From a virus (Duplodnaviria > Caudoviricetes), in IMG/VR virus record IMGVR_UViG_3300022666_000111: a stretch of DNA of 64,000 nucleotides; one strand, 5' to 3'. Position numbers and translations under genes: made by a program. Each line of letters opens with the position of its first letter. Position 1 is the first letter of the stretch. This document shows, piece after piece, positions 2,135 to 52,439 of this stretch. The notes under the pieces are model-generated. The model was not told the origin of the DNA, made no database searches, and was given only the letters and a program-made list of their open reading frames with translations.

Positions 2135-2159
2135 CCGTGTGTAACGGTAGCGGTATGTT
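2131..2159 (+). promoter_or_regulatory. sigma70-like promoter of the HNH gene (leaderless)
   Basis: TTGACC-N17-TATGTT, 6 nt before ATG 2166. Confidence 0.55.
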
Positions 2160-2165
2160 GTCAGT

Positions 2166-4709: not shown

Positions 4710-4714
4710 ATCGG

Positions 4715-6863: not shown

Positions 6864-7274
6864 TTAGCTCTCGTCGTCGTCCTCTCGAAGTCGGTCCAAC
6901 CATGATTGACCCTCTGGTGCTGGTGTGGCTTCCTTGCGCTTACGGCCCCGACGTGCGGGCGCCGGAGGGGCCGCTGGGGCTTGGGGCTCTGGTGTTGCTA
7001 CGGTCGGGGGTGCTGGCGTTTGCGGGCGTTGCTGGTGCTCAGCTAGACGCCTGACTCTGCCTTGAAGATCCTCAATGGCTTCAGCTTGCGCACGAAGACG
7101 GGTGCGTACCATATCCAGGACGTCTTCAGACAGGTTGGAAGTCTCGTGCCGGATCATCCATGTCATGTAGTAACGCCAGGCCCGCCAGATCAAAATGAGC
7201 GCAAGCGAGAGAAGCATGGCGGCGACCCGCCAGTCACGGATGATGTAGGTCGAGACTTTCTCAAACCACGTCAT
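6864..7274 (-). CDS. membrane-anchored coiled-coil protein with acidic C-terminal tag
   Basis: One TM helix, Pro-rich linker, ends SWLDRLREDDDES. Confidence 0.6.
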   Translation of the reverse strand: MTWFEKVSTYIIRDWRVAAMLLSLALILIWRAWRYYMTWMIRHETSNLSEDVLDMVRTRLRAQAEAIEDLQGRVRRLAEHQQRPQTPAPPTVATPEPQAPAAPPAPARRGRKRKEATPAPEGQSWLDRLREDDDES

Positions 7275-22000: not shown

Positions 22001-23709
22001 AGCTGGTGTCCCCATTCGGAATCATCCGGTTGACCAGGATCCTCGAGGTAGCCCTCGGGGATCCTCCCATTCTCTACGAGCTTTCCCATGAGCTTGCGGG
22101 TCCGGTCAAGGGTAGCCTCATCCGGGATGCCTGCCTTGCGGGGCCGGGGGAGGATGCTCATAAGCCAGAAGGCTTCAACCGGCTTGAGCTGCCCCGGTGT
22201 GACCTTGAAGTAGTGCTTGGAAGCCGGGCCGATCCCGTAGAGGTCCGGGCCGTATTCGACGACGTTGAGGTATAGCTCGATGATCTTGTCCTTGAGGTAG
22301 CAAGACTCGATCGCCTGGGCCAAGAAGAACTCCTGCGCCTTACGCCCCAAGGTCTTATCGCGACGAAGCCAGAGGTTCTTCGCGAGCTGCATGGTGATCG
22401 TTGAGCCGCCTCGGTGGAAGCGCCCGAGCTTGAGGTTGTCCAGGAGGGAGTTACGGTAAGCGCCGATGTCAACGCCTCTGTGTGCGACGTAGCCGGGGTC
22501 CTCCATGGTGATGGCCGCGTTGATGAGCCCCTCGGGAATCGCCTCAAGGGGGACCCAATCGGCGGAGCCTGGGCCGGACGTGCGGTCTACGAGGTCGTTC
22601 TTGGAGGAGTAGACCTTGTAGGTGAACGGCTTGGCAAGCGCCTTGAGCTTGGCCGCGTCACACTTCGCGCGACAGGATGTGTTGACATGTAGGGAAGGTT
22701 TGTCCCCATAACCAACGCGGAAGTCCACGTCTCCGGTGAACGTGATGCCTTCAAGAGGCTCACGAAGCCCCACGGGGAGGCTGGCGACCCAAGCCGAGCA
22801 TGCGCCCTTGCCATCGATCGTCTTGGCGTCAGGAATCCATGAGGCGTCTGCGAAGCCCTCAAGGTTGGCCGTGATGACTTTGCGGTTGGTGATCGTCAGT
22901 ACCACCATCTTGTCGAAGACCACGGGAACAGCGTTCAGCCACTCGTGCTGGAGCACGGCGCCTCCGATTTGGACCTCAATGGGCTCGCCGTAACGCACGA
23001 CGACCTTCTCGAGGCGTTGCCCCATGGCGATGACGCTTTGAGCCATCGCCTTCCTCCCGTCCTTGGAAATCATCGCCTTCTCAACAGCGATCTCAGGACC
23101 TCCTTCGGGCTTGATGGTGACCTTGGCGACGGTGCCAAGGTCGTCCTTGAGGTTCAGGGCGGCGCCTTGTAGGGACCAGGACGTTGTGGGGTATGTGTGA
23201 ATCGGCTGGAGGTACTTCCCAGAAGCCTCAGTGAGGGTGATGTCGTCCTTGGCCTTTCGGACGCCCTTGAAGGTCGCCTCGAAGTCTGGGTTGGTGGCCT
23301 CGCCGGTTTCGGCGGTGATGGTCCCCTGGTCATCAAGGGCAGCGTTGTGCAGCACGGCCTTGAGGCTTCCCTTGAAGACCGTGACCGTGAGCCCCGAGGC
23401 TGTGACCTTACGCTCGGAGGGGTTTGTGGGCTTGCTATCGCCCAAGGTGACGGCTGCCCAGCCTCCTTGGATTTCCACCCGGCCTCCCCAGCTTACGCGC
23501 ACGTTTGGCAACGACGCCGTGAGGTTGGGGCGGTTGACGTGGAGGCTCAGACGAGAGTACCCCAAGCGTGGGCTCACGTCACCAACGGTGACGCCAGGGT
23601 AGTTCTTCTCGACGTGCCATCGGATGGCCATAGGGGTCGCCGCGTAGAAGCCGGTCCCGAGGGCAAGCACCGAGATCGCGACCAGGGCTGTTTTATGCCG
23701 AAAGGTCAT
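21997..23709 (-). CDS. peptidoglycan glycosyltransferase (GT51, monofunctional transglycosylase-like)
   Basis: EDPGY..HRG.D, GGSTITMQLAKNL, RKAQE, KDKIIELYLN; N-terminal anchor. Confidence 0.88.
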   Translation of the reverse strand: MTFRHKTALVAISVLALGTGFYAATPMAIRWHVEKNYPGVTVGDVSPRLGYSRLSLHVNRPNLTASLPNVRVSWGGRVEIQGGWAAVTLGDSKPTNPSERKVTASGLTVTVFKGSLKAVLHNAALDDQGTITAETGEATNPDFEATFKGVRKAKDDITLTEASGKYLQPIHTYPTTSWSLQGAALNLKDDLGTVAKVTIKPEGGPEIAVEKAMISKDGRKAMAQSVIAMGQRLEKVVVRYGEPIEVQIGGAVLQHEWLNAVPVVFDKMVVLTITNRKVITANLEGFADASWIPDAKTIDGKGACSAWVASLPVGLREPLEGITFTGDVDFRVGYGDKPSLHVNTSCRAKCDAAKLKALAKPFTYKVYSSKNDLVDRTSGPGSADWVPLEAIPEGLINAAITMEDPGYVAHRGVDIGAYRNSLLDNLKLGRFHRGGSTITMQLAKNLWLRRDKTLGRKAQEFFLAQAIESCYLKDKIIELYLNVVEYGPDLYGIGPASKHYFKVTPGQLKPVEAFWLMSILPRPRKAGIPDEATLDRTRKLMGKLVENGRIPEGYLEDPGQPDDSEWGHQL

Positions 23710-24230
23710 TCTTGTTCCTCATCAGCTATGCGATCGTACCAGGTCGAATCTGAATCCTGGGACGGAGGTTGCACTATGGTGGGGTTTGGATCGACATGCG
23801 GTTGGGGTTGGATGAGGATCTCATCCATATCGTGACCATGGACCGCGTTCGTGAGCATGTTGACTTGGCGGGCAAGACGATCGATCCGACCAAGCATACG
23901 AGCATTAAGCACTTCTAAGGGGACTCCGTTTTTGATAGCTTTTACCTGGTCCTCAAGGCGCGCTAGCCGAATTGCTGTCTCACGTTTCCATTCAGCGTCA
24001 TCCGCGCGGGTTTGGTGGCGGTTAACCACACGTGCCAGCAGGTCGGTAGCTACGACAACCCCTCCAAAAACCCACACGAGGTGCCAGAACTTGACGCTGA
24101 AGCCTACAAAGTGTGCCGTGACGCCGTAGGCCGTCAGTAGGACGACGCCTGAGCAGAGCGCGCACAGTATGATCCTGAGACGGCGAAGGATGACCTTATC
24201 GTCAACGGGGGAGCCAGGTGAGTATCCCAT
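23706..24230 (-). CDS. two-TM membrane protein with acidic C-terminal tag
   Basis: Two TM helices; ends STWYDRIADEEQE. Confidence 0.6.
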   Translation of the reverse strand: MGYSPGSPVDDKVILRRLRIILCALCSGVVLLTAYGVTAHFVGFSVKFWHLVWVFGGVVVATDLLARVVNRHQTRADDAEWKRETAIRLARLEDQVKAIKNGVPLEVLNARMLGRIDRLARQVNMLTNAVHGHDMDEILIQPQPHVDPNPTIVQPPSQDSDSTWYDRIADEEQE

Positions 24231-24283
24231 GGACCCCAACTACACCGATGGCTCCTTGGGGTCCAGCTAGCCTTTCGATAACG

Positions 24284-24814
24284 ATGTCATTGGTGATGAC
24301 GACCTCTGGCATCGTGACCAAGCCAAACCCTCAAGACCTGTGGGAGCCGACCAACGTTGGCCTATGGGAGAGGGTCAACGACTTGGCTCAAGGCAGGATC
24401 AAGGAACTCAAAGGCAAGGACACCACGTATCACGCCCCAAGGGATGGCGCGGGGTTCAAGGAGTTTCCCTCACCACGTGCCAATGGGTGGTGCGTGAGGA
24501 TCTACAACCTTGCCGGGGGACGTTGGCGCAAAAAGGGTGAGACGCGAACCTTCCTTCTCACGGGGAACATGGTTGAGAAGGTCGTTGAGCGGCACCAAAC
24601 CAAGCTGGCGAAGATGCTCGGAGAGGACATTCGTCGCAGCATGGCCCGCTATCAAGAAGGGCCGAGCCGCGAATGGCACCAGTGTAACGGATGCTCCTTA
24701 TGGGTTGCCACCGAACCTCGCATTGTCACGGCGGCGCAGCCTGGCATCTGCCTTCGCTACCAATTCAGAACAATCGATAAGGGGTGGTGCCCCACACATC
24801 ACACGATGGAGTAA
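24284..24814 (+). CDS. hypothetical phage protein
   Basis: PTN..LW...FPS..ANGW...Y...GG.W; C-terminal Cys cluster. Confidence 0.55.
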   Translation: MSLVMTTSGIVTKPNPQDLWEPTNVGLWERVNDLAQGRIKELKGKDTTYHAPRDGAGFKEFPSPRANGWCVRIYNLAGGRWRKKGETRTFLLTGNMVEKVVERHQTKLAKMLGEDIRRSMARYQEGPSREWHQCNGCSLWVATEPRIVTAAQPGICLRYQFRTIDKGWCPTHHTME

Positions 24815-24819
24815 CAACC

Positions 24820-25380
24820 ATGGCTATGATCGGCCTGCGTATGCCTGCCGAGACAGGTAGGCTGCTTTCAGAGATTTCCGTCGAAGGGGAGGCGGTTGAT
24901 TTCGGCCACGCCCACGTGACGGTCGTCTACCTTGGTGATGACGTCCCTCTCCCGGCTGTCTTGAAGGCCGTGGAGGTCTGCTATGACGTGGCGCAACGAA
25001 TGCGTCCGATCAAGTGCAGCACGCGTCACACGTTCTGCTTCCCTCCATCGGATGAGGGAAAGCATCCAATCATCTGCCCGATTGATTCCCCAGACCTACA
25101 TGTCCTCCATGCAGGGATCACCGCAGGGCTTGACGCTGCGGGCGTCGAGTACAGCAAGAAGTGGCCGGAGTATAGGCCGCACACGACGTTGGCCTATGCC
25201 GACGCGCCTTACCCCGTGATCGACTTCGATCCGATCGAATGGACGGCTTTCGAGCTGACCGTATGGGGTGGGGATCATCGGGATTCGCGGATAGTCATCG
25301 CGATCCCGTTCTACTTCAAAAGTGACGCCAAGTTGGCCGCCAGGGTAGCCGCCCGGTGGCTTGGGCAAAACGCAGGCTAA
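24820..25380 (+). CDS. 2H phosphoesterase (2'-5' RNA ligase / Acb1-like fold)
   Basis: Two HxT motifs, AHVTVVYLG and PHTTLAY; C-terminal AARVAARWL. Confidence 0.82.
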   Translation: MAMIGLRMPAETGRLLSEISVEGEAVDFGHAHVTVVYLGDDVPLPAVLKAVEVCYDVAQRMRPIKCSTRHTFCFPPSDEGKHPIICPIDSPDLHVLHAGITAGLDAAGVEYSKKWPEYRPHTTLAYADAPYPVIDFDPIEWTAFELTVWGGDHRDSRIVIAIPFYFKSDAKLAARVAARWLGQNAG

Positions 25381-30726: not shown

Positions 30727-31149
30727 CTACACCGGGTCGTCGTCGGAATCCTCAATAAGGTGGTCAAAGACGGTTTTTGACTGCTTCTTAGGCTTGAAGG
30801 GTCTGATAGGGGGCAGCTCTAGCAGGAGGTGGTCAAAAAGGGTGACTTCCTGTGGCGGGGGCTCCTGGTACGTATTCTGAACCGTGGCGTTTGGGGTCTC
30901 CACCACGATCACGTTTGACTCACCGTCCATAGGAGGGTAACGGCTTGGGAGGTGGTGGAGCGCCCGGTTACGTGGCTGGGTCTTGTCCGATACCAAGGTC
31001 ACCTCCACCGACCATCCTGGGGAATCCGCGTCTTCGGTTACGTTGACGCTCACGACGAAGGGGTCCCGGCTGAGCCCTCTGGCGTGTAGCTGAAAAGCTT
31101 CTCGCGCCTCAAACGGATAATACATGCGCCAGGTGACTTGCGAGGGCAT
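30727..31149 (-). CDS. hypothetical protein with duplicated acidic tag
   Basis: TLFDHLL and TVFDHLIEDSDDD. Confidence 0.6.
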   Translation of the reverse strand: MPSQVTWRMYYPFEAREAFQLHARGLSRDPFVVSVNVTEDADSPGWSVEVTLVSDKTQPRNRALHHLPSRYPPMDGESNVIVVETPNATVQNTYQEPPPQEVTLFDHLLLELPPIRPFKPKKQSKTVFDHLIEDSDDDPV

Positions 31150-31157
31150 GCCCGATG

Positions 31158-31174
31158 CTACACCATCGGTGTAG
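31158..31174. promoter_or_regulatory. bidirectional promoter CTACACC-N3-GGTGTAG
   Basis: 8 nt to the divergent ATG on each side (31149 and 31183). Confidence 0.7.
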
Positions 31175-31182
31175 GTGCATCC

Positions 31183-31848
31183 ATGGCTTTTCGTTCAGAT
31201 CCTGTGAACTTGCTCTATTACGAAAACCTCGCACACCGTCCTCCAACGGAGATGGTCTATGCGGTGGACACGGCGTCGGCAACGATCTACACACAGAACG
31301 TCGGTGCGAACGTGCGAACCGTGGAGCGATCAAGGCTAAGAGTCCCGGTCTTCTCCTTTCAAAGGCCCTCCGACCTCAACAACATAGCGGTCAGCGTCAT
31401 CACGGCGGCGGCGCAGGAGTCGGCCAACACAACACGTCCGCCTATCTATGCCGGGGAGAGCCCCCTTGAGGTCTTGTACGAGGCGAGGAGGGTGCTGGAG
31501 TCTGAGAACGTCCCATTCCACGCGATCCTCCTACATCCAAGCTACCTCCGATTCGTAGACGGCCTTGATGACGACATCCCCTGCTACGTCCATGACGACG
31601 CACCAGCGGGGGCGGTCCTCTACCTCCCGGACCCTGCCTACCTTGGTGTCGTTTCGGTTTTCGAGAATGTGGCAGCCATACACGTCCGGGGGCCGATCGC
31701 GACGATCCTCACGGACCCATCAAGCCGATTCCGGAACATTCGGCATCCGATGGTCATCCCGACACAGGTTAAGCCCAAGGCGCCTGTGCCATCCGATCCG
31801 CAGTACCGTGACGTTTGGAGGCACCTTGAGGACGACGACCTCTTCTAG
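31183..31848 (+). CDS. possible degenerate HK97-fold capsid/encapsulin-like protein with acidic tag
   Basis: RVPVF; AILLHP; VHDDAPAGAVLYLPDPAYLG; ends WRHLEDDDLF. Confidence 0.45.
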   Translation: MAFRSDPVNLLYYENLAHRPPTEMVYAVDTASATIYTQNVGANVRTVERSRLRVPVFSFQRPSDLNNIAVSVITAAAQESANTTRPPIYAGESPLEVLYEARRVLESENVPFHAILLHPSYLRFVDGLDDDIPCYVHDDAPAGAVLYLPDPAYLGVVSVFENVAAIHVRGPIATILTDPSSRFRNIRHPMVIPTQVKPKAPVPSDPQYRDVWRHLEDDDLF

Positions 31849-32081
31849 ACGGCCCGAACGGTGCCGATCAGCTTCGGCTCCCCGTGAACCAAACCAAGAA
31901 AGAACCTAGCGGCGTCACTTGCGAGCCCTTCGGTCACAGAGGCTCGGTCGCAAGTCACACGGTAGCCAATGACGCCGTCGTTCAAGAAGAACGGGCCAAC
32001 GATCACAGGCTGATCCGACCCGCTCTTGCCGAAGTACACGTTGCCCTCGAGCAAGCCTTCTCGAAGATCTTCGTAGGTCAT
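31845..32081 (-). CDS. hypothetical protein
   Basis: GGAGG RBS. Confidence 0.5.
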   Translation of the reverse strand: MTYEDLREGLLEGNVYFGKSGSDQPVIVGPFFLNDGVIGYRVTCDRASVTEGLASDAARFFLGLVHGEPKLIGTVRAV

Positions 32082-32083
32082 AA

Positions 32084-32857
32084 CTAGCCTCCAGGGTTCA
32101 GGCTGCACCAACAAGGCTCGGTCGCCGGGGTGATGAGCCTCTTGATCCACACGAGTAGCTCATCACGGTTGGAGAATTGGGGAAAGAAGCGTGCTCGGCT
32201 ATCATCCCCATCCATAGCAGGTATCGGGCAGGAGTCACAGCAAGACCAAAGAGGAACGTCCTCCACACCATCGGTGCCGTAGCCCCTAGCTGTGGCTTCC
32301 GTTGGTCGAAAACGCCAGGTGCTAGTATCGGCCCGACCCTCATCAATATCGGGGTACTCACAAGTCCTGCTGGACACTTGTTTCACGCCAACAATCCGGC
32401 ATCCCTCACCATGCACTACCACGAGGTTCGTGGGCCAGCGACCTGTGGGGACGGGGATGAGCCCCTCGGCGTAGTACTTTCGGATGGCGGTGTGTTGTAG
32501 GAAGGCGGTCGTGCTCTCACCCGTGCCTCCGGCGCCGAGGCGGTTCCACTCCTCTTGGGTGGGCTTCTCGTCTCCCCAAGAGACCCGGCAAGCCTCAATG
32601 TTGATCCCACCCGCTGCGAACTTGAGGGTGTTCTCCGCAACGGTCGGGGCATCAAGTGTGTTGCGCAAGAGGAAGGCCATTTGCACCTGGTCCGCCGTGT
32701 AGACCAGCATGGTGTCCCGAAGGGTGAGGCCGAACTTCCTCGCCTCAAGGGCCGCCCACGTGCTTGACGCGAAGACCACAAGGTGCGCCCCGGGCACAAG
32801 GTTCTGAACAGCCTCTCCGAGCCGTTCAACGCAAGTTATAGCTGAGCTGTATTTCAT
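32084..32857 (-). CDS. DNA methyltransferase-derived protein lacking catalytic motifs (paralog 3)
   Basis: PGAHL, GGINIEACRV, GRWPTNL, ARFFPQF, LITP; no DPPY or FxGxG. Confidence 0.65.
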   Translation of the reverse strand: MKYSSAITCVERLGEAVQNLVPGAHLVVFASSTWAALEARKFGLTLRDTMLVYTADQVQMAFLLRNTLDAPTVAENTLKFAAGGINIEACRVSWGDEKPTQEEWNRLGAGGTGESTTAFLQHTAIRKYYAEGLIPVPTGRWPTNLVVVHGEGCRIVGVKQVSSRTCEYPDIDEGRADTSTWRFRPTEATARGYGTDGVEDVPLWSCCDSCPIPAMDGDDSRARFFPQFSNRDELLVWIKRLITPATEPCWCSLNPGG

Positions 32858-33672
32858 AGGGCGCAGAAGACGGTACCACCGTCCGGGGGTGTAAGGAGGT
32901 TTGTAAACCAGGCGATGAGCGCCTTCTCGTTCGCGAATTGAGGGTAGTACCGACTAGCACCGCCGACGTCACCATACGGCTGACTGACGGATACTGTGGC
33001 GGCAGCGCTGAAGGTTGAGGGTTTGTCGCGAACCGTGGGGGCTGTAGGGCTCCGGGTGATGCCGCTTTGGTCATCAAGGGCGTGTAGGGGGCAATCAGGA
33101 GCACACTCCCACACAGGGACCTCTTCCGTCCCGCCACCCGTTGACGTGTAGGCCCCACTCCCCTCAACGCAGAAGCGTAGGCCGTCATAGCGGTTGATCT
33201 GGGGCGCAGGGGCCGACGTCGCGCCGATAATCCGGCAGCTAGGGCTGTGGATGAAGGCAAGGTTGGCAGGCCAACGACCGATCGTGTTTTGCTTCTCCTC
33301 GGGGTTGAGGTGGGAGCGGTCAACCGTGTGGAAGATCTTGTCTTGTTCCCCCGGCATGCTCCCGGGCTTGCCTGCCTCGCGGTCAGCTTCGCTTTGCCAG
33401 CGGACCCGGCAGGCGTCTATATGGAGGCCGCCAACTCCGTGTTGGAGCGCGTTGGCGGCCAACGTCGGGGCGTCCAAGGGCGCCCGTAGGAGATGCGCGC
33501 AGCGGCATCTCCCGGGCTCAATGATCATGAGGGAATCTCGAAGGATCCACCCTTGAAGATAGCGGTAGCTTGAGAAAGCCCGAGCGTCTTGAACGAGGAC
33601 GATGACATGCGCCCCAGGGAGAACCGGCTCCGGGAGCACTGCGCTTGCGTGTAAGATAGCGCCTGCCAGCAT
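32854..33672 (-). CDS. DNA methyltransferase-derived protein lacking catalytic motifs (paralog 2)
   Basis: PGAHV, GGLHIDACRV, GRWPANL, ASRYYPQF, LLTPPDGGTV then stop. Confidence 0.65.
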   Translation of the reverse strand: MLAGAILHASAVLPEPVLPGAHVIVLVQDARAFSSYRYLQGWILRDSLMIIEPGRCRCAHLLRAPLDAPTLAANALQHGVGGLHIDACRVRWQSEADREAGKPGSMPGEQDKIFHTVDRSHLNPEEKQNTIGRWPANLAFIHSPSCRIIGATSAPAPQINRYDGLRFCVEGSGAYTSTGGGTEEVPVWECAPDCPLHALDDQSGITRSPTAPTVRDKPSTFSAAATVSVSQPYGDVGGASRYYPQFANEKALIAWFTNLLTPPDGGTVFCAL

Positions 33673-34382
33673 TATTGCACCACGTAGGGGTCGCCAAGAA
33701 GCGCCTTGAGCCATTCCAACAGGTCGTCCATGCCTTTGAATTGGGGGTAGAACCTGGCTGCTTGCAGCTTGGCTTGCTTGTCGACCTCGATCGCGGGGCA
33801 TCCGTCCATGCAGACCCAGCTATCCATCTCCTCCCAGCCGTCTTGTCCGTGGTGGACCGTTGACCGCACCGACCAACCTAGTTCATAGGTTTGCTTGTAC
33901 TTGTCCTTAATGTCCACCCCGGCCTTGGGGGGAGCGCTCACCTTGAGCTTCACCTTGCCCTCAAGGAGACACTCGGGACGGTGGATGAGCATGAGGTTCG
34001 TGGGCCAACGCCCGATCGCCAACGTTGGTTGTGGGTCGCTATCCCACCCTCCGCTGTAGGCGTTCTCAGGAGACCCACAGGGCTGGTTGATGCGGATATC
34101 GTCACCGACGTGGCAAGCTGCGAGGTGGATCCCCCCGACGCCGTGCTTGAGAACGTTGGAGGCAACGGTATCTCCGTCGAAGGGGGCGCGGAAGAGGAAG
34201 AGCGTGAGGGTTGAATCCGGCGTCATGACCGTGAGGCCATCACGCATGACGAGGCCCTGTCGGCGGGCCATCATGGAATCGTAGAGTGTTCCAAGAAGGG
34301 CGACGTGCGCCCCTGGGCGGACTTCCTTGATAACGCTCTCCCAGCCGGGTTGGGGGCGAAGGATGATGGCTGATTGATGCAT
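33672..34382 (-). CDS. DNA methyltransferase-derived protein lacking catalytic motifs (paralog 1)
   Basis: PGAHV, TVASNVLKHGVGGIHLAAC, GRWPTNL, AARFYPQF. Confidence 0.65.
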   Translation of the reverse strand: MHQSAIILRPQPGWESVIKEVRPGAHVALLGTLYDSMMARRQGLVMRDGLTVMTPDSTLTLFLFRAPFDGDTVASNVLKHGVGGIHLAACHVGDDIRINQPCGSPENAYSGGWDSDPQPTLAIGRWPTNLMLIHRPECLLEGKVKLKVSAPPKAGVDIKDKYKQTYELGWSVRSTVHHGQDGWEEMDSWVCMDGCPAIEVDKQAKLQAARFYPQFKGMDDLLEWLKALLGDPYVVQ

Positions 34383-34440
34383 GCTTGGCATTCTACACCG
34401 GAATTCGTTGATGAGGTTCTTCCTTTTGCATACGTAGAGC

Positions 34441-34647
34441 ATGACGATCGAGGGGTACGTTCCGATGTCAACCGAAGAGCGAGACGCGGCAATGGCGCTC
34501 GCACCATCCCGCCCCGCTGCCAAACGGTGGCTTGAAGCCCACAAGGGACACGAGACGCGGATTGCGAGGGTTGAGAACTACCTCAACCGAGGGGTCTACG
34601 TCACGTTTCGGTGCTCTTGCGGATCTACCGAGGACGTCTTGGTTTAG
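34441..34647 (+). CDS. small hypothetical protein
   Basis: HKGH...CSCG. Confidence 0.45.
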   Translation: MTIEGYVPMSTEERDAAMALAPSRPAAKRWLEAHKGHETRIARVENYLNRGVYVTFRCSCGSTEDVLV

Positions 34648-35354
34648 AAGAGGTCCTCGTCCAAGAGGCGATCGAAATAATCCGTGAGGGGTTCCGGCGT
34701 CACTTCAAAGAGGACCCATTCCGCGAAGAACCGCTCATGGTTGAGCTGGATCGCGCTGGAATCGGCTGCAAGAGGGTCATCGTAGGTGACCGTGATGAGG
34801 GGATTCGTAGGGCTATGTAGTATGCCTTCGATGACGCCGGTCAAGCCACCGTTGATTTGACGGACGTGAGCGCCCCCTTGAACCCAGGAGGGTAGCTGCA
34901 TGTTTGGAATCGGGGGTCCAAACATGTTCTCCGCGCCGTTGGGCAAGGTGTCAACGAGAAACGTGTGGCGTCCAACCCCACTGTAGTCGATGTTTCGCCG
35001 AAGCGGTTGGATCACACTGCTGGCGAGGCTCCGTTGGATTTGGACGGCGCCTAGCTGTAGGATGGCCTCCATGGCGCTACGGATGGTGGTCCCTGGGTCA
35101 GGGAGAGGCCGTGGCGGCGCGGGCTCACGGTATTGTAGGCGCTCGATGGCGTTGATCACGTCGCTTCCAAGAAGCGTGTCGAGGGGCTCGGTGTTGTAGC
35201 CGATTTGACGTTGAACCTCAACGCGGAGGTTCAAGCCCACGGGGCTAAGCGTGACGCTGGCGATACCTGGGCGGGCGCGGAGCTGGGCTATAAGCTCCCG
35301 CACGGCTATGCGGGAATCCACGTTGTCGTAGACGAAGACCCAGAAGAGCGGCAT
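34644..35354 (-). CDS. capsid-fragment / SH3-like / acidic-tag protein
   Basis: LASSVIQPLRRNIDYSGVGRHTFLVDTLPNGA; ends YFDRLLDEDLF. Confidence 0.55.
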   Translation of the reverse strand: MPLFWVFVYDNVDSRIAVRELIAQLRARPGIASVTLSPVGLNLRVEVQRQIGYNTEPLDTLLGSDVINAIERLQYREPAPPRPLPDPGTTIRSAMEAILQLGAVQIQRSLASSVIQPLRRNIDYSGVGRHTFLVDTLPNGAENMFGPPIPNMQLPSWVQGGAHVRQINGGLTGVIEGILHSPTNPLITVTYDDPLAADSSAIQLNHERFFAEWVLFEVTPEPLTDYFDRLLDEDLF

Positions 35355-35653
35355 CAGGCTTGTCCGACGACTTGCTTGTTTCCGAAGATTCGGTCCCAGC
35401 CGTCACGATAGGCGGGGGTTGCTACGCGCACGGGGCCTTGGTGCTCGACCTTCGTGTAGCGGTAGCGATTGCCTTCGATCTGCTCAACCAAGAAGGAGTC
35501 CTCGGGAAGGGATTCCCCATCCGCCACCTTTCGAATGATACCAGCCTCGATCTGGTGATCCTCTGTGTGACGGACGGCGAGGCGTTGGCCCTCCCCGACC
35601 TCCGGACCGATCACGATCTCATTCCCGCAGTCGCATTTCTTCTCGTCGCCCAT
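35354..35653 (-). CDS. hypothetical protein
   Basis: TPAYRDGWDRIFG; GGTGTAG 8 nt upstream. Confidence 0.6.
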   Translation of the reverse strand: MGDEKKCDCGNEIVIGPEVGEGQRLAVRHTEDHQIEAGIIRKVADGESLPEDSFLVEQIEGNRYRYTKVEHQGPVRVATPAYRDGWDRIFGNKQVVGQA

Positions 35654-35661
35654 GTTGACCT

Positions 35662-36012
35662 CTACACCAGCGGATTGTCCTTTGGAGGGGGCATCACTGG
35701 CAGATATACCGCAAGGATACGGGTCTGTCCTGTTCGAAGACATTTGACCACCCGGTGGACCCCATCGGCGATACACCCGTCGGGGGTGAGAATGATGGGG
35801 TAGCTCAGGTCTGCGCGCTCAACGCGATCGGCGTGCTCCATGATCTCGTTGATGGTCATAGGCCCGGCTGACCAGCAATGGCTGTCCAAGAGCTTATCGA
35901 CGTCCGTGATGAGGCAAAGGGCTACCTCCACGGGCTTGAGGAGGGCGGCCATCCGCCAAAGGTCGGCGACGTCCCAGGAGTAGGTCCCGTCCGAATAGGT
36001 CTGGTCAGCCAT
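35662..36012 (-). CDS. ParB/Srx-like small protein
   Basis: ADLSYPIIL...IADGVHRV.K. Confidence 0.65.
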   Translation of the reverse strand: MADQTYSDGTYSWDVADLWRMAALLKPVEVALCLITDVDKLLDSHCWSAGPMTINEIMEHADRVERADLSYPIILTPDGCIADGVHRVVKCLRTGQTRILAVYLPVMPPPKDNPLV

Positions 36013-36437
36013 CAGAGCCACCTCAAGGCGGCAGCGTTGCAGATCAGGTGCATCGTGTTGTCCACGATGATCATGAGCCATACGGTGAGCCAGACCGGGC
36101 GTTCCGGGCTGTACCCGGTAGCCTTACAATCCGCCCAGGCATAGTTCCGCCGTGCGGGTTGCCCTTCCGGCTGGATCCACTTGGGCGCCAAGAAGTTATT
36201 GACCCAGGAAACGTACGTCGCGAGCTTGTAGTGATCAATCACGAAATGCGTCACGAAGATGAAGGCCAGAGCGGCTGGGCTCCGTGTGAGCGCAAAGAAG
36301 GGGAGCGTGTAGAAGAAGGCGTGGATGAGCGCCACGCTCTTGCGGTTGTACTTGTTGGCGGCCATCCAATCGGATTGAAGGCAGTAGTCACCGACCAGGT
36401 GACACAGGAGTTGGTCAAAGGTGCCAAATGGGTTCAT
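36012..36437 (-). CDS. DUF3307 membrane protein
   Basis: HLVGDY.LQSDWMA..K; THFVIDH; DNTMH. Confidence 0.8.
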   Translation of the reverse strand: MNPFGTFDQLLCHLVGDYCLQSDWMAANKYNRKSVALIHAFFYTLPFFALTRSPAALAFIFVTHFVIDHYKLATYVSWVNNFLAPKWIQPEGQPARRNYAWADCKATGYSPERPVWLTVWLMIIVDNTMHLICNAAALRWL

Positions 36438-36453
36438 GCCCCGATCTACACCG

Positions 36454-36789
36454 CTAGTTGCTCTTGTCCCGGAGCGCCTTTGAGAGCATCTGGTGGATCT
36501 CGCGATTGCGCTGGTCGTACTCCGCCTCAATGAGCTTCCCGCGCGTGTACTCATACGCGGCGAGCTTCTTGTAGAAGTTGACCTCGTCGACGTAGGTCTC
36601 CTTGATCTTCTCGTGGTGCTTCTTATGGATCTCGAGGCTAGCTTCGGCGATCCGGCGTTTGGTATCGACGATGATGTACTTGCCCCAGAGGATGCAGCCG
36701 ATGAGGGACCCCCCGCAGAGCATCCCGACGAAGAGGAGAAAGAGCTGCACGACTTGCGGGGTGTTGTGAATCTGCTCGCCGAGGGTCAT
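36454..36789 (-). CDS. membrane-anchored hypothetical protein
   Basis: One TM helix; AGGAG RBS. Confidence 0.55.
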   Translation of the reverse strand: MTLGEQIHNTPQVVQLFLLFVGMLCGGSLIGCILWGKYIIVDTKRRIAEASLEIHKKHHEKIKETYVDEVNFYKKLAAYEYTRGKLIEAEYDQRNREIHQMLSKALRDKSN

Positions 36790-36844
36790 AAGGGCTCCTT
36801 GATTTACCTTGGTGGTCCTACACCAGGAGGTGTAGAGGAGACCC

Positions 36845-37189
36845 ATGACAGACAAAGCGATGCTCACGGCTCTTTTGACTTGCGGCAAGCTATCCGAAGA
36901 GGAGGAATCCGCCTTTCGAAGCATGCTGTCACAAATCGACAACGCGAAACAGGTGAAGACGTTATCGTCACGGCAGCGGCAATGGGCAGAATCCGTTTAC
37001 GCCAAGCTCGGCCTCATGGACGAAGAGGGCTCGGCCAATCTCATCTCGAGCGGCAAATACGTGCCGACCGCCGCCGAGATGGTCAAGAGGTATCCATGGG
37101 AGCTGAAGCGCGGCCCACGCAAGCCTCCTGGACGCAAATGCCCGGAGGGGACCGGCGCCTGTAAATGCTGCGAGACTTGTAGGATGTAG
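36845..37189 (+). CDS. hypothetical protein
   Basis: GGTGTAG 9 nt upstream; LSSRQRQWA. Confidence 0.55.
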   Translation: MTDKAMLTALLTCGKLSEEEESAFRSMLSQIDNAKQVKTLSSRQRQWAESVYAKLGLMDEEGSANLISSGKYVPTAAEMVKRYPWELKRGPRKPPGRKCPEGTGACKCCETCRM

Positions 37190-37193
37190 CGCC

Positions 37194-37430
37194 GTGGCCC
37201 GGCGTAAGCAGTGCTGGGGACCGGGAAAAGACCAGCACGTCAAGGGATGCCGACCGGGGCGTCCGTTATGCCGGTGGATGAGGCAGAAGAAGGCCAATCA
37301 GCAGAAATGCACTTGCGGGGCCTATCACTACCCCCACCGGAGAGGCAGCGGTCTTTGCGGCAGCCCTGAGAAGATGTGGGAGCTTTGTTACGGTCCGGCT
37401 CCCCAAGAAGAGGACGAGGTCCCGTTCTAA
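37194..37430 (+). CDS. small Zn-binding protein with SSB-like tail
   Basis: CTCGAYHYPHR.GS..C; ends EEDEVPF. Confidence 0.55.
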   Translation: MARRKQCWGPGKDQHVKGCRPGRPLCRWMRQKKANQQKCTCGAYHYPHRRGSGLCGSPEKMWELCYGPAPQEEDEVPF

Positions 37431-37447
37431 TCCTCTTGTGAAACGGC

Positions 37448-46284: not shown

Positions 46285-47697
46285 TCAAGGAAGGCTGACA
46301 GGTTGAGGTGTGACTTTGTCCACGCTTGTAGTATCCCCGAGCTGTCCCTTGTCGTTCAAGCCCCAGCAGTACAAGGTCTCATCCCGTATCCCGCAAGAGT
46401 GTCCACCTCCGGCGAAGACACTATCCCAGAGGTAGCCTCCAGCGACGGCCGTAGGGGTCGATTTGTTGGCGCAGGTATATGGGGGCGGGTCAGGGCAAGA
46501 TGAGCCGTCCCCAAGCTGCCCCCATTGGTTGTGGCCCCAGCAATAGGCTGTGTAGTCTGCCTTCAGACCGCAGGTGAAGACCTTTCCCGCGCTTATGCCC
46601 AACCAAACGTCGCCGACCTGAACGGGGGCTGTCTGTATGTCGAGGGTCCCATTACCAATCTGCCCGGCGCGGTTATCGCCCCAGCAGAAGAGGTGGCTAT
46701 CACTCCTCCGAGCACACGCGTGGATCCAGTACGCCGAAACCTTCTGCCACGTGCTTGTCCCAACCTTGGTGGGCACGAGCTTGGGCGCGGCGTCAGCAAG
46801 ACCAACACCCAGCTCGCCGTAGGTGTTATCGCCCCAACAGTACAGGGAGCCATCGAGCTTGAGGCCACAAGTGAAGTCCTTACCAACAGACACTGAGGCC
46901 CAATCAGATCCTACCAAGCGGGGCACGCTCGTCACGCCCTCGCAGGTATAGGGTGAAGCGGAGCATTGGGTGCCGTCTCCGACTTGGCCGAAGCTATTAG
47001 CTCCCCAGCAGAAGAGCTTCTTGTCGGCCCGGATGGCGCAGGTGTGGCGCCATCCTGCACTTACACTCAGCCAGGTGTCCGAGCCTATCTGCACAGGGGT
47101 CATCGCTGTGTTCGTCGTCCCGTCCCCAAGCTCTCCGTTGACGTTGTAACCCCAACAGAAGAGCTTCCCATTCGTTTTGATTCCGCAGGTATGGTAGCCC
47201 GCTGACACGGTGAGCCATTCCGAATCGTCGACCTTCACGGGGGCGTACTTCGTCTCCGTCGACCCTATCCCGAGCATTCCGTAGACGTTGTAGCCCCAGC
47301 AGGAGAGGGCCTTACCTTTGATGGCGCAATTGTGGTAGAACCCTACTGACAGGGTGATCCCTACGGGGGTGACGACGGCTGCGTCAGCATCGACATCGGC
47401 CGCGTCAGGTGTGTCCGCGTCAACGTCAGCCTCGGCTTCAATGGCGGCATCAGCGTCGGTGAGCGCGTCGGCCTCATAGGTGTCGAGGGTCACGTCAGGG
47501 GGATTTGCGTCCGGGAGCGTGGTGTCCGTCACAACGTCAGGTACTTCAGGCGCCGAAGCGTCCACCTCCTTCGCATCCAAGGCGGCGTCCGTTAGGTCTG
47601 CGGGGGCTCCCCCTGTGTAGCCGTCGAGGGGCTCGAACAAGCGACACGCAGGCAGCGCGAAGCAGAGCAACCCGATGAGAGCTGTGTTGCGCGGCAT
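46285..47697 (-). CDS. RCC1/BLIP-II beta-propeller lipoprotein
   Basis: Lipobox LPAC; Asp/Ala linker; about 7 repeats of HTC.I...LxCWG.N..G.LG.G. Confidence 0.9.
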   Translation of the reverse strand: MPRNTALIGLLCFALPACRLFEPLDGYTGGAPADLTDAALDAKEVDASAPEVPDVVTDTTLPDANPPDVTLDTYEADALTDADAAIEAEADVDADTPDAADVDADAAVVTPVGITLSVGFYHNCAIKGKALSCWGYNVYGMLGIGSTETKYAPVKVDDSEWLTVSAGYHTCGIKTNGKLFCWGYNVNGELGDGTTNTAMTPVQIGSDTWLSVSAGWRHTCAIRADKKLFCWGANSFGQVGDGTQCSASPYTCEGVTSVPRLVGSDWASVSVGKDFTCGLKLDGSLYCWGDNTYGELGVGLADAAPKLVPTKVGTSTWQKVSAYWIHACARRSDSHLFCWGDNRAGQIGNGTLDIQTAPVQVGDVWLGISAGKVFTCGLKADYTAYCWGHNQWGQLGDGSSCPDPPPYTCANKSTPTAVAGGYLWDSVFAGGGHSCGIRDETLYCWGLNDKGQLGDTTSVDKVTPQPVSLP

Positions 47698-47770
47698 CGT
47701 CTCTTACTACACTGGACGATGAAGTGAATTGTTGAGGGAAGGGAAGATTGAAGGGAGGAAGGTCAGGGGG

Positions 47771-50098
47771 TCAGATCTTGACCTCGACCTCACGGAGGGT
47801 AGCGGTGCAGGTGAGCTTCTGACCGTCGGCCGTGATGTCCAAGGTGTTCTCGTCAAGCGTCGCGAATTCGGTGAACCAAATCTGACCGACGATGATGGCG
47901 AACTTGATCTTGGCCATCTCCGAGATGAGCTTGCGCACCTCGGTGGTCGCGGCCTTGACCTCACCGTCGATCCAGGCTTCGAAGAGCTTGTCCTGGTTCG
48001 CGGCATTGACGTAGACGTCCGAGGCAAGGAAGCCTTCGACCTTCTCGATGATCGGCTTCATGAGGGCGGCGCCCGCGTTGAGCTTGCCCTTGGCTGCCTG
48101 CTTCTTGAACTCGTTCATGCTCGGGATCGCGGAGAGGCCCTTGATCGCGAGCTTCAGCTCCTTCGCCATGTACACGTCGGTCGCCTCGGCTTGGACCTGC
48201 TTGGGGGAGAAGCCGCTGTAGTCCGTGAAGCCCTGCTCCTTGAGCCATGCGGCGGCGTCGACGCCATAGAGGACCTCGTAGCCTTCGGAGGTGCGGGGGA
48301 ACCGCTCCTTCTTGACGGCGTTGAGGACCTTCTGGGCCGCGCGGGCCTTCGTCAAGGCGTATTCCTTCTCGAAGAGCGCCTTGGCGGAGCAAGCCTTGAC
48401 CATGTTCCGGTTGATGATCGGCATCTCGGTCAAGTCGAACACGAGGTCGACGGGCTTGCTGGGGTCGGTGTACCAGCTCTGGTCGAGCGTTTCGCCTTTG
48501 GGCGTGTGGGCGCAGGTGGGGCTCATACCAGCGTCGCGGAGCTTCTTGATCGTCGCCGGGGTGACGCGGACCGGGAGCGCCTTGACGTTCACGAGCCCAT
48601 CCTTGACGATCGCGTAGTTGCGGAAGATGAAGGTCGGGAAGCTGCGGGGCAGCTTGGGGAATTCACCGTCCTTGACTCGCCCGGAGATATCCACCGTGCC
48701 GGTCTTGCGGACCAACACGCTGATGTTGGGCTTTTCCTCGTTGTAGGTGAGGTTCGAAATGGCGTAGCCGGAACCGTCACCCTTGTCTTCGACGAACTTG
48801 AGTGCGTCTTGCTTGCTCGAGGTGATGGCGGCGATTTCCTGGGCCAGGGAGGCGATCTTCTTGACGTCCTTGGTCTTGCCCATCTCCTCGGTGAGCTTGT
48901 TGACCTTCTCCTGCTCCTCGGCGGAAAGGTTCTCGGAGGCGTCAACCCTCGCCCGGCTGATCCGGTTGTACTTGAACTCAGGGTGGTCCAAGAGCAAGCA
49001 GGCGTCGTCGTCGGCGAGGATCTCCAAGAGCTGGAGGACCGTGAAGGCGTCGTCCGGGGGAACCTGGCTGGGATCGAAGCCCAGGGTCAGGCGCCCTTTG
49101 GGGTCGAACGCGGCGGCCTTAGCGCGCTCCATGAAGGCGCTGTAGCGTTGCTTGCCGAAGCACCCGCCGAATTCCTTGATGAAGCTGACGTCGCCGGTTG
49201 CCTTGAGCAAGGGGAGGACAACCTCGGGCTTCATGCGGACGCTGAAGAGGCTGATCGCGGCGTAGAGGGCCGGGATGGGGTCAGCCATCTTGCCGCTCGT
49301 CTCGGTCGGGGTGAGGTACAGGACCTCCGACACGCTTTCGGGGACCAGGATCTTGCCGTCCTCGACCGTGAAGGTCAGGAGGTCGTCGCCAGCCATAGCG
49401 AAAGCGAACCCGCCGATGACGTCGCCCTTGATGTTGACTTCGACCTTCTTGACGCCAGCGATCTTGCGCTGCATGGCGGCCTCGAAGGCGGGCTGGTAGG
49501 TGTCGAAGTGCTCGGCGAAGATGTGGGCGCCACCGGCCTTCTCTGCCATCGCGGCCAAAAGGGGGCGGTCGGCGTAGTAGCCGTACTCAACGATCGTCGT
49601 TGCGGCAAGCCCACCGGCTGCCTTCTCGATCGCCTTGAGGATCTCGGCGCGGCTCCATTGGTTGTCACATCCATCGCTCATGAAGAAGAGGCTGAAGGCC
49701 GTTCCGGGGCGCTTCTTGCCAATGCGGTCGACCAGCTTGGCGGCCTCCTCGAGGGGCTCCTTGAATCCGGTCAAGCACACCGGCTTGAGCCAGCGATCGA
49801 TCGCCTGGTTGACGGCGGAAAGGTCCGCGAGGGTCGCCACCGGCTCGGCCTCAAGCAGGGTCCCGAATTGCCCGCGCCCGGAGAACCACACGATGCTGAT
49901 CGTGTCCTGGTCGCCGAGGAGCTTGGGGAGCTTCTTCTTGAGCTGTTCGCGAATCTTTGGCAACTCACCGTACATCGAGCCCGAGCAGTCAATCACGACG
50001 ATGTGGTTGGTCGGGGGCGGCTTGACGGTGGTAGCGGGCTTGGTGGAAAGCAGAACCGAGGCAAGAAACAGAGAGGCGGTGATGGGGTAGCTTGACAT
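47771..50098 (-). CDS. vWA domain protein
   Basis: MIDAS VIDCSGSM and FMSDG; AGGAG RBS; strong codon bias. Confidence 0.85.
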   Translation of the reverse strand: MSSYPITASLFLASVLLSTKPATTVKPPPTNHIVVIDCSGSMYGELPKIREQLKKKLPKLLGDQDTISIVWFSGRGQFGTLLEAEPVATLADLSAVNQAIDRWLKPVCLTGFKEPLEEAAKLVDRIGKKRPGTAFSLFFMSDGCDNQWSRAEILKAIEKAAGGLAATTIVEYGYYADRPLLAAMAEKAGGAHIFAEHFDTYQPAFEAAMQRKIAGVKKVEVNIKGDVIGGFAFAMAGDDLLTFTVEDGKILVPESVSEVLYLTPTETSGKMADPIPALYAAISLFSVRMKPEVVLPLLKATGDVSFIKEFGGCFGKQRYSAFMERAKAAAFDPKGRLTLGFDPSQVPPDDAFTVLQLLEILADDDACLLLDHPEFKYNRISRARVDASENLSAEEQEKVNKLTEEMGKTKDVKKIASLAQEIAAITSSKQDALKFVEDKGDGSGYAISNLTYNEEKPNISVLVRKTGTVDISGRVKDGEFPKLPRSFPTFIFRNYAIVKDGLVNVKALPVRVTPATIKKLRDAGMSPTCAHTPKGETLDQSWYTDPSKPVDLVFDLTEMPIINRNMVKACSAKALFEKEYALTKARAAQKVLNAVKKERFPRTSEGYEVLYGVDAAAWLKEQGFTDYSGFSPKQVQAEATDVYMAKELKLAIKGLSAIPSMNEFKKQAAKGKLNAGAALMKPIIEKVEGFLASDVYVNAANQDKLFEAWIDGEVKAATTEVRKLISEMAKIKFAIIVGQIWFTEFATLDENTLDITADGQKLTCTATLREVEVKI

Positions 50099-50204
50099 GG
50101 TGTTCTCCTGACGGCAAAGGCGCAACAAGGTTGGTTTTGGGTGGTGGGATGCGCCACACGCCGTTCCCTCCTACTACACCGGACGGTGGCGCCGATCAAT
50201 GAAA

Positions 50205-50432
50205 TCAGGCAGGGGCGATGCTGTTTGCCCGATCACGGAGATCCTCGGACAATTCAGCGACATCGGTGATCTCGGCGTTCAGCATACAGGACTCATCCCA
50301 TCCTCGGCTCGAGTACTTCCGGCCTTGGGCATCGTAGTCCTTGTTGGCATCGTCGAACCCATATCGATAGCGGCTGACCTTGCCACATGCCTGGCAGACG
50401 AAAACCTTTCCATCGGGAGCTTTGTCGTTCAT
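50205..50432 (-). CDS. small Cys protein
   Basis: FVCQACGK; GWDESC. Confidence 0.6.
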   Translation of the reverse strand: MNDKAPDGKVFVCQACGKVSRYRYGFDDANKDYDAQGRKYSSRGWDESCMLNAEITDVAELSEDLRDRANSIAPA

Positions 50433-50440
50433 GCTTGCCT

Positions 50441-50459
50441 CTACACCAGGCTGGTGTAG
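50441..50459. promoter_or_regulatory. bidirectional promoter CTACACC-N5-GGTGTAG
   Basis: 8 nt to the divergent ATGs at 50432 and 50468. Confidence 0.7.
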
Positions 50460-50467
50460 TTCGGGGC

Positions 50468-51292
50468 ATGGACGTACGTGACATGACCGGGCGTGAGATC
50501 GATGAGGCGAAGAGCTGGGGCTTATCCCCGGACAAGTATCTATCTTTGAGGGACAAGCTCAACCGGGAGTTCCAAGACAAGGACAAGGCCAAGCTGCGGG
50601 AGGACATCACACGGGAGGTCTTCGACAAGGCCAAGAACGACGCCCGCAAAGAGCTTGAGAATGATCGGGCGAAGCTCACACCTACGGCGCTCCACCGGAG
50701 CGTCTCCACGGAGTACTTGGCGTGCTACGAGATCGAGTGTCACACCTTAGCCGAAACGGCGTCCGCTTTGGCGGAGCAGAGCCAAGAGAAGTTTGACTGG
50801 AATAGGCGTCGCCTGAGTGTCATCTGGGTTCTATCCGTGGCTCTCGTGCCCGCCATCGCGATCCTCTATTGGAGGGGCCTCACGTATAACCACCTAGCGT
50901 TCTGGGGGGTGATCGTCCCTATGGTTGTGACGCACATCTGGAATTGGGTGAGCTACGTCTATGGGGGTGAGGAGCATGACGAACGCAGGAAGCGCCTCTT
51001 GAAGATCGCGTCGGACTACCTGATCCTTGCGGATAGCGCCAAGGGCGCACGAATCGTCGACATCCCCGTAGCAGATACGATCCAGACGATTCAGAACAAG
51101 GTCGAGCACCTTGCGGACATGAAAAGGCGACAGGACGATAACTTCACGCCCTTCACAAGCGCCATCCTCAAGGGGAGGGAGCGGGCCAAGGTGAGCACCC
51201 TAGCCACCATTGATGCCCAGGATGTCATCCGGACCCTCAAAGAGCTGCAAGAGCCCGCCGCCCTGCCAGAACACGTTGATCCCAAGCCTTGA
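50468..51292 (+). CDS. two-TM membrane protein
   Basis: Two central TM helices; GGTGTAG 8 nt upstream. Confidence 0.6.
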   Translation: MDVRDMTGREIDEAKSWGLSPDKYLSLRDKLNREFQDKDKAKLREDITREVFDKAKNDARKELENDRAKLTPTALHRSVSTEYLACYEIECHTLAETASALAEQSQEKFDWNRRRLSVIWVLSVALVPAIAILYWRGLTYNHLAFWGVIVPMVVTHIWNWVSYVYGGEEHDERRKRLLKIASDYLILADSAKGARIVDIPVADTIQTIQNKVEHLADMKRRQDDNFTPFTSAILKGRERAKVSTLATIDAQDVIRTLKELQEPAALPEHVDPKP

Positions 51293-51311
51293 CCGGCATA
51301 CAGAGGGCATG
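51274..51311 (+). repeat. 38-bp promoter/start cassette, copy 2
   Basis: CGTTGATCCCAAGCCTTGACCGGCATACAGAGGGCATG. Confidence 0.85.
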
Positions 51312-51809
51312 ACTAGCCAAGAAGCCCTCCAAACCATCATCGAAAAGCTAACTGAAGCCGGGCTGACCGTTACGCGCAGCCCCTCCGGCCTCAATACCAT
51401 TAACGGAGTCATTCCGATCAGGGTTGAGCAGGAGTCACGCGGCGGCCTCTACTCCACGAGGGGGAACGGTAAGATCCGGGCCAAGCTGGGGAACTACGGT
51501 AGGGAGCTGATCCAGTACCCCCAAACCAAGGATGGCGGCTTCAATTGGACGAAGATGATCCAAGATGCCAAGGACCTCTTCGCCAGGGAAGAGGCTGCTC
51601 GGATTCAGGCTGAAAAGAACCAACAGAGACGCGATCGGCTGGGCCTTGAGGTTGACCAGCTCAACAGCAAGTACGGCGTCAAGGACGCCTTCTGCCGCCC
51701 CGCCCGCGTTGCCATTGACAACAACGGGCTCAGCTTCACGGCAAGGGGGCTCACGAAGGCCCAAGCCGACGTCCTCATGGCGAAGGCGATGGAGATGGGG
51801 CTCCTGTGA
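51309..51809 (+). CDS. hypothetical protein
   Basis: Promoter at 51276-51300. Confidence 0.65.
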   Translation: MTSQEALQTIIEKLTEAGLTVTRSPSGLNTINGVIPIRVEQESRGGLYSTRGNGKIRAKLGNYGRELIQYPQTKDGGFNWTKMIQDAKDLFAREEAARIQAEKNQQRRDRLGLEVDQLNSKYGVKDAFCRPARVAIDNNGLSFTARGLTKAQADVLMAKAMEMGLL

Positions 51810-52071
51810 GATCGTCCACGACGGTCACACGGTAATCCATGACGGACGTCCCGCAGAGGATGTAGCACAAGAAGTACGCGGCTGTATGCCCATGTAGGAC
51901 ACTCACAAAGCCTTGTGGGTACTTCTGCGGCTCAAGGACGACACGGAGAGGTCCTCCTGCTCCGACGATGGCTGGGATCTTTCCTCGGAGGACCTTGAGG
52001 ACGGTGTCTGCAACGTCCGTGTACGACGTGACCTCGGTGACCTTCTCGTCACAATGGTAGATGTGGATCAT
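51775..52071 (-). CDS. hypothetical protein
   Basis: Stop/start-coupled ORF. Confidence 0.45.
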   Translation of the reverse strand: MIHIYHCDEKVTEVTSYTDVADTVLKVLRGKIPAIVGAGGPLRVVLEPQKYPQGFVSVLHGHTAAYFLCYILCGTSVMDYRVTVVDDLTGAPSPSPSP

Positions 52072-52439
52072 GGATGCGCCTTAAGGGGCTTGAGGTCAAG
52101 GGCGACGGTTCGAGCGACCTTTTCGGGGACCTCATCGGTGTCGTTGCTGATTCGAAGCTCGGGGGTGTGGCTTGGGTAGTAATAGCCCGGGGGGATAGCG
52201 CGGGAGACGTAGACGTGCGGTCCGAGGCGATCCATGAAGCGGATTGTGCCCATGAAACCCGCTTGGAGGAAGTCCACGAGGGTATTGGGCTCGTAGTCGT
52301 CCTTCGTCGCGTTCTTGATGAAGAGCTGGTAGTCCTTGGGGGAGATCGTGACGGGGAGCGCCTCGAGGTAGAAGAGAGTGTCAACGATCTCCTTCCAAGT
52401 GGCGGGCATGGTCCCCGTCTCCGGAGTGTCGTGCTGCAT
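52068..52439 (-). CDS. possible capsid A-domain-like fragment protein
   Basis: ISPKDY...LQAGFMGTI...VYVSRAIPPGYYY. Confidence 0.45.
   Translation of the reverse strand: MQHDTPETGTMPATWKEIVDTLFYLEALPVTISPKDYQLFIKNATKDDYEPNTLVDFLQAGFMGTIRFMDRLGPHVYVSRAIPPGYYYPSHTPELRISNDTDEVPEKVARTVALDLKPLKAHP

Follow-up and report, generated by a model that had tools for sequence, protein, structure and literature searches.

T4 gp24 is a full-fold capsid homologue that co-assembles and serves a purpose besides building the main shell. A capsid homologue is likewise used beyond the main shell in the case of Ccm of SaPIbov5, which has the full fold and co-assembles (PMC8569155). Tab and Tai are small accessory proteins acting on virion assembly; they target tails, are borne by prophages or islands and, in their abstracts, are given no origin from virion-protein pieces (PMC10884400, PMC11364771). 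Host sensors such as Lit, with the Gol peptide, recognise virion surfaces: CapRel SJ46 contacts the P-domain sheet and the spine helix in the major capsid protein (MCP; PMC9712102), whereas Avs7, Avs8 and Avs10 bind the A-domain and Avs16 binds a hairpin of the tail tube (PMC13581612). Mutations in the prohead protease confer escape from cyclic-oligonucleotide-based antiphage signalling (CBASS; PMC13728456). Here we analysed a stretch of 64,000 nucleotides from the IMG/VR virus record IMGVR_UViG_3300022666_000111 (hereafter the window), in which four scattered open reading frames (ORFs) encode MCP-derived proteins with surfaces of the kinds that these sensors contact.

Sequence comparison confirmed that all four ORFs derive from an HK97 MCP of the type of phage G gp27 (PDB 6WKK), 31183 being the weakest case. 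The ORFs are named by their first coordinate, which for 34644 and 52068 is the stop end because both lie on the minus strand:

31183–31848, plus strand: P0003, 221 amino acids (aa), a shrunken, highly diverged, collinear MCP paralogue (global hhalign) with a DLF tail.
34644–35354, minus strand: P0002, 236 aa, a family-specific small N-terminal domain, an MCP block, a possible barrel and a DLF tail.
44499–45581, plus strand: P0001, 360 aa, a proline-rich patchwork chain of virion-protein pieces, a KOW/SH3 barrel and an acidic tail, with syntenic orthologues at 32–40% identity.
52068–52439, minus strand: P0004, 123 aa, a stand-alone A-domain piece (MCP 181–243; hhalign probability 91%, E 1e-6) with no tail.

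These ORFs, and every peptide quoted from them in the initial annotation, are present in the window. The MCP of G020 (407 kb) and its clade stood in for the MCP of the window phage; G020 is the nearest usable relative, with 66–68% identity in the protein encoded at 2998–3870 of the window. This clade MCP, 83–100% conserved, belongs to the Bacillus phage G gp27 family (PDB 6WKK, E 1e-59; HK97 fold; phrog_2522). When an MCP profile was run against 600 window ORFs, 44499 ranked first (E 9e-17), 34644 second (3e-10) and 52068 third (1e-3), the best value of the reversed-sequence control being 0.64. Moreover, phrog_2522 matched 34644 at profile positions 56–92 and 44499 at 118–152, and tblastn recovered the MCP of LR745208 and gp27 for both. 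The 52068 protein reached an hhalign score of 45 against 21 for its best shuffle, with pairwise z values up to 7.3. The 31183 protein was not significant locally (hhalign 21.3 against 19.8 for the best shuffle; hidden Markov model (HMM) E 0.51), but its global alignment to MCP 38–291 scored 16.0 against a mean of 2.9 ± 1.7 and a maximum of 7.3 in 40 shuffles. The five Atlas structures closest to its low-confidence model were all phage capsids (TM-score 0.33–0.37).

The capsid resemblance put forward in the initial annotation therefore holds, with significant similarity to an MCP. Its encapsulin-like origin does not: no Pfam encapsulin match was obtained at E values up to 1, a Pfam search of the four proteins returned no match at all, and the donor is a gp27-type MCP. 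The ORFs had also been described as successive parts of a capsid protein; parts of a capsid they are, but not in simple succession, as 44499 is permuted and 31183 is a condensed, nearly whole copy.

By membership tests, the four proteins lie outside the MCP, encapsulin, split-gene and Ccm classes. Compared with gp27 they are pieces of 30–70 residues or a shrunken copy, permuted, fused to unrelated modules and far from head genes, and none has a complete fold. Each is partial as a gp27-type MCP, since the blocks of 44499 are permuted and not folded as a P-domain (predicted local distance difference test (pLDDT) 46–64) and 31183 is collinear with large deletions. A split capsid gene was rejected, as there is overlap between the pieces, their order is scrambled and unrelated modules are attached to them. 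The setting of a head module, with adjoining protease and decoration genes, is absent for the four genes, and the head module genes of LR745208, G020, G007 and G015 matched no window ORF apart from these four. Compared with Ccm, the pieces are sub-domain in size, scrambled, several per genome and phage-borne, the longest capsid-like part being about 180 aa against 282–293; at most, they resemble Ccm or an anti-defence mimic in how they work. In the literature searched, which covered few subscription journals, no description of capsid fragments, decoys or shared C-terminal motifs in jumbo phages was found, nor a described phage inhibitor built of capsid fragments. On sequence grounds we regard these proteins as a real, undescribed class, whose anatomy is solid and whose function we infer.

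The 44499 protein has the following parts, named from general knowledge of HK97 because the AlphaFold2 model of the MCP was poor (pLDDT 40):

44667–44780, plus strand: probable tail-tube piece of the phi812/SPO1 type (residues 57–94; phrog_985, E 0.02–0.04).
44760–45095, plus strand: allele-swap tract (codons 88–199), where 49 of the roughly 70 differences to a strain 99% identical over 7 kb are located.
44991–45086, plus strand: MCP block 115–146, part of the spine helix (blastp E 4e-6, HMM independent E-value (iE) 6e-5), which precedes block 84–116 and so is out of order.
45111–45164, plus strand: degenerate second spine-helix copy, seen by eye and helical in the model; the orthologue P0006 has several copies.
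45189–45227, plus strand: probable prohead-protease piece with an SWV..PA motif (protease ranked top among 49 core families, scoring 26 against 17, with 60% probability).
45252–45350, plus strand: MCP block 84–116 (HMM iE 1e-10), 67% identical over 33 aa to the MCP of LR745208, 66–69% to clade MCPs and 44–45% to gp27.
45360–45521, plus strand: KOW/SH3-like five-stranded barrel (AlphaFold2 pLDDT 87–92; top Foldseek matches KapB, Spt5 and the NusG KOW domain, E about 0.01).
45528–45581, plus strand: acidic tail at the C-terminus, containing a short W-x-x-L helix and ending in DLF (sequence and model).

We take block 84–116 to be the strand after the E-loop and the short helix before the spine helix. 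Together, the reversed blocks 84–116 and 115–146 gave E 2e-16. Besides its capsid blocks, the 44499 protein probably holds a tail-tube piece and a prohead-protease piece, to judge from profile matches. Four of its homologues were matched by phrog_985 at the same profile positions (E 0.02–0.04), with the tail tube 8q01 as the best PDB match (E 0.07); the tube-like piece did not match the relatives' own tail tube. Homologues also contain a second protease block (probability 93%), and one of them, P0016, contains a portal piece (E 2e-5). An NxNGD motif occurring in seven proteins (at most one in shuffles) did not align with the protease of the clade. In the allele-swap tract, synonymous (pS 0.42–0.51) and non-synonymous (pN 0.07–0.19) changes are mixed, and comparison with the 99%-identical strain identifies codons 88–199, the spine-helix block included, as an allele swap. 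A complex prediction of the MCP with residues 160–289 scored 0.00 and is evidence neither way.

The barrel is the sole high-confidence fold in the 44499 model. Of the two SH3-like domains reported in the initial annotation, that of 44499 was borne out by this model (pLDDT about 90) and its KOW matches, whereas the one in 34644 scored 12.9 against 14.0 for the best shuffle, though placed where other family members carry the barrel. The capsid part of 34644 is as follows:

34932–35036, minus strand: MCP block 23–57, the match reaching about 60 (HMM iE 1e-9), 57–64% identical to relatives' MCPs and 44–48% to gp27.

This block presumably corresponds to the end of the N-arm and the start of the E-loop. 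The N-terminal domain of 34644 matches the P0020/P0033 family (probability 95%), and other family members carry MCP 8–68 and MCP 85–120, then barrel and tail; 34644 lacks the second block.

The genes are not an assembly artefact, because a contig spanning 31000–46000 is identical to the window throughout (possibly its source) and the three tailed capsid-piece genes are each unbroken in a run of a different study, whose contigs differ by 4–6 substitutions each and have no gaps. With a profile built on the 44499 family, 222 clusters were retrieved at 50% identity. Among 150 clusters examined, 137 were neither full nor simply truncated MCPs, 62 had several blocks, and 33 had blocks reordered or repeated, with spine helix, C-terminal hairpin and block 84–116 as a recurrent order; the four clusters checked in context were whole genes amid small accessory genes. 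In G007, G013, G015 and G020, MCP pieces lie distant from the MCP gene, fused to zinc ribbons, a twin-arginine translocation (TAT)-like leader or other modules. No MCP fragments were detected at this sensitivity in LR745208, G012 or phage G, nor were pieces found in most of the remaining records searched, of which many were partial. Of 48 core families, the MCP alone yields short embedded pieces.

In sequence divergence, these capsid-piece proteins are supported as old, selected accessory proteins, with synonymous sites near saturation and residues kept. Among accessory copies, block 84–116 has pS 0.55–0.87 and pN 0.21–0.33. In the syntenic orthologues, the capsid block retains 55% identity (pN 0.23–0.27, pS 0.66–0.79) compared with 22–31% for the folded barrel, and pS exceeded pN against the own MCP in all 11 fragments of three relatives. 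Recent gene conversion from the MCP was ruled out for blocks 84–116 and 23–57 by pS values of 0.57–0.78 to four clade MCPs. Two further groups were observed. P0108, P0137 and P0146 are diverged MCP paralogues of full length that have a proline-rich leader; two of them end in an aromatic-leucine peptide like the tail, and all three are possible intermediates toward fragment genes. P0025 and about 20 similar proteins form a separate family, consisting of the N-terminal half of a gp27-type MCP (5–145) with internal repeats and ending just past the spine helix.

As stated in the initial annotation, 31183, 34644 and 44499 end in acidic DLF tails, in which a W/F-D/E-H/R-L helix is followed by acidic residues. 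Seven window ORFs are tailed, the DLF ending being confined to the capsid-derived three; the four others are:

6864–7274, minus strand: ORF whose tail is a weaker version (tail search).
23706–24239, minus strand: ORF whose tail is likewise a weaker version (tail search).
30727–31149, minus strand: tailed ORF (tail score 19.5) with no MCP match.
43093–43548, plus strand: tailed ORF without capsid similarity; relatives have an ORF of the same size at the same place.

The tail also ends 27 ORFs of G020 without a detected capsid piece (16 of them seeds; control 1 of 1688), whereas the three capsid-piece genes of G020 are tail-less; G007, G015 and 100 kb of LR745208 have none or one each. It accompanies capsid pieces in 48 of the 137 clusters by a loose pattern. 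Tail and capsid pieces are therefore separate modules, often found together, and the idea that the tail ties the capsid pieces to one partner is weakened. A reading of the tail as a sliding-clamp motif found no beta-clamp family match in five relatives. A single 100-kb region of G020, between 280000 and 384000, contains a cluster of about 25 unrelated accessory ORFs that end in this tail. A 78-aa Cys/His protein (37194–37430, plus strand) has an acidic tail with a terminal PF, as in the C-terminus of bacterial single-stranded DNA-binding protein (SSB), and is a possible SSB-tail mimic, and an A-x-R-V-x-x-R-Y/F/W helix forms a second shared tag at the ends of several unrelated proteins (1508–5152, 24784–25380 and 37926–39869).

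A GGTGTAG box precedes two of the four capsid-piece genes, and the 34644 gene is coupled to its upstream gene:

31168–31174, plus strand: GGTGTAG box, 8 nt upstream of the ATG at 31183, whose use as start it supports.
44480–44486, plus strand: GGTGTAG box, putative accessory-gene promoter, 12 nt upstream of the 44499 start codon.

In G020, the GGTGTA box occurs 10–21 times per 20 kb in the accessory region compared with 0–2 in the structural region. The motif is likely a phage promoter giving near-leaderless messages, and expression of the capsid-piece genes may be separate from that of the capsid and perhaps earlier. Across the window (1–64000), 45 GGTGTAG boxes were counted (7 per 10 kb), 22 of them sited 8–9 nt before a start codon and often back-to-back between divergent genes.

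We propose, as a possibility somewhat short of an even chance on the sequence patterns, that these accessory proteins display virion epitopes to blunt host sensors. Of the decoy or adaptor idea in the initial annotation, selected accessory proteins of capsid origin stand on the evidence above, and the decoy or adaptor function itself is what we infer. Recombination long ago would have joined conserved virion-protein segments into accessory proteins, and the segments, whose origin, age, selection and spread were observed, would have been retained since they bind something. Made separately from the late structural operon, the proteins would show epitopes of capsid, tube and protease to the pattern-recognition proteins of the host and keep these non-activating before virion proteins build up, with the barrel and the acidic tail, which other accessory proteins were seen to share, as generic exchangeable docking modules. 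Decoys are favoured because several virion proteins, each of a kind known to be sensed, seem to have contributed pieces to one chain. In further support, the syntenic orthologues are best conserved in their capsid block, and strains swap alleles within the 44499 patchwork. It is a less probable extension that gp27-type jumbo phages string sensed epitopes (capsid, tube, protease and portal) into a modular anti-immunity repertoire, refreshed by allele swaps, with captured sensors routed through the shared C-terminal tail; if so, the chosen blocks would map the epitopes sensed by uncultured hosts. Several points weigh against the proposal that the proteins are decoys. Avs sensors recognise whole folds by shape, Avs7 over 3,700 square angstroms (PMC13581612), for which pieces of 35 residues may be too small. 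The Gol peptide of T4 activates Lit (PMC9712102), and by analogy a good mimic could trigger a sensor instead of blocking it. The tube and protease assignments in 44499 are weak at the sequence level, the early-promoter role of the GGTGTAG box is only putative, and the finding of MCP pieces alone is biased because the MCP is conserved far above other core proteins (83–94% in the clade compared with 23–61%). The pN/pS comparisons rest on blocks of 30–40 codons chosen by protein similarity, so that the effect size is uncertain while the direction is consistent. MCP matches in genome collections, which might have pointed to the host, are scattered contigs of metagenome-assembled genomes from unrelated taxa.

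Assembly interference is a less likely alternative, in which the blocks replace the native segment in MCP or tube subunits and slow, reshape or spoil the assembly of heads or tails; the target would be the phage's own particles (timing, size) or those of a co-infecting rival. In 31183 (the shrunken paralogue) and 52068 (the A-domain piece) there is a likeness to capsid homologues of the Ccm kind; Ccm co-assembles with the helper capsid and redirects it (PMC8569155). Tab shows assembly blocking to be effective as a defence (PMC10884400). The tube-like piece, matching the phi812/SPO1-type tube and not the relatives' own, is what would be expected for a rival target. However, the blocks of 44499 and 34644 resemble the MCP of their own clade (66–69% and 58–61% identity, compared with 44–45% to gp27), which is about 90% identical across it, and a poison would therefore hit self; head, protease and tail pieces in one chain also share no single assembly site. 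The decoy reading is favoured here because pieces of probably three virion proteins stand in one largely low-confidence chain, and no single assembly site needs these. It is more doubtful that the segments are reused docking motifs without an immune role, binding a host or phage factor (a chaperone, EF-Tu, a protease or a scaffold) and linking it to the partner of barrel or tail. One block recurs in fusion with numerous unrelated modules (zinc ribbons, TAT-like leader, barrels) in the manner of linear motifs, and we take block 23–60 to sit, by general HK97 topology, where the Gol peptide sits in T4. The T4 MCP binds EF-Tu (PMC13581612). No partner was identified, however, and several blocks from different proteins would each require their own factor.

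Cargo tags, by which the proteins would enter or attach to the procapsid and be delivered when the next cell is infected, are quite improbable: the internal proteins of T4 are a precedent for tagged cargo and capsid-like segments could bind scaffold or shell, but the genes lie in the accessory region behind an accessory-type box and encode scant cargo besides the pieces. Least probable of all is neutral debris, that is, decaying but recognisable duplicates of a highly conserved gene. Fragments vary between genomes, none was detected in some relatives, and detection favours the MCP; yet the open frames with start boxes, the near-saturated synonymous sites with kept residues, the syntenic orthologues down to 32% identity and the roughly 137 clusters largely refute it at the sequence level.

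The window is an accessory region of a large uncultured phage, with 59% GC, no tRNAs and many short genes on both strands, and a near-identical relative was found on a 341-kb contig. Its sequence matches come from biofilm and wastewater metagenomes, and none of the datasets listed as containing it is RNA. Elsewhere in the window, three tandem paralogous ORFs (32084–34544, minus strand; 257, 315 and 290 aa) have their matches in the same proteins of G020 and G015 and are possibly methyltransferase-derived; a contig in another run skips 33417–33832 within them, suggesting recombination between paralogues. At 46285–47697 (minus strand) lies an RCC1-repeat protein with a lipoprotein-like leader and an acidic linker, a style which we take to be that of myxobacteria and which is a possible hint of the host.

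Conserved virion proteins, which are hard to mutate, let bacteria detect phages, and how large phages evade this is an open question. What the window adds is a permuted patchwork of several virion proteins, an allele swap within it, and a tail that is decoupled from the capsid pieces. Widespread, selected proteins built of conserved virion pieces are testable candidates for such a counter-measure, or for a new form of assembly tuning or sabotage. They also show how jumbo phages create genes, and they serve as a warning that short capsid matches in such genomes are not broken capsid genes.

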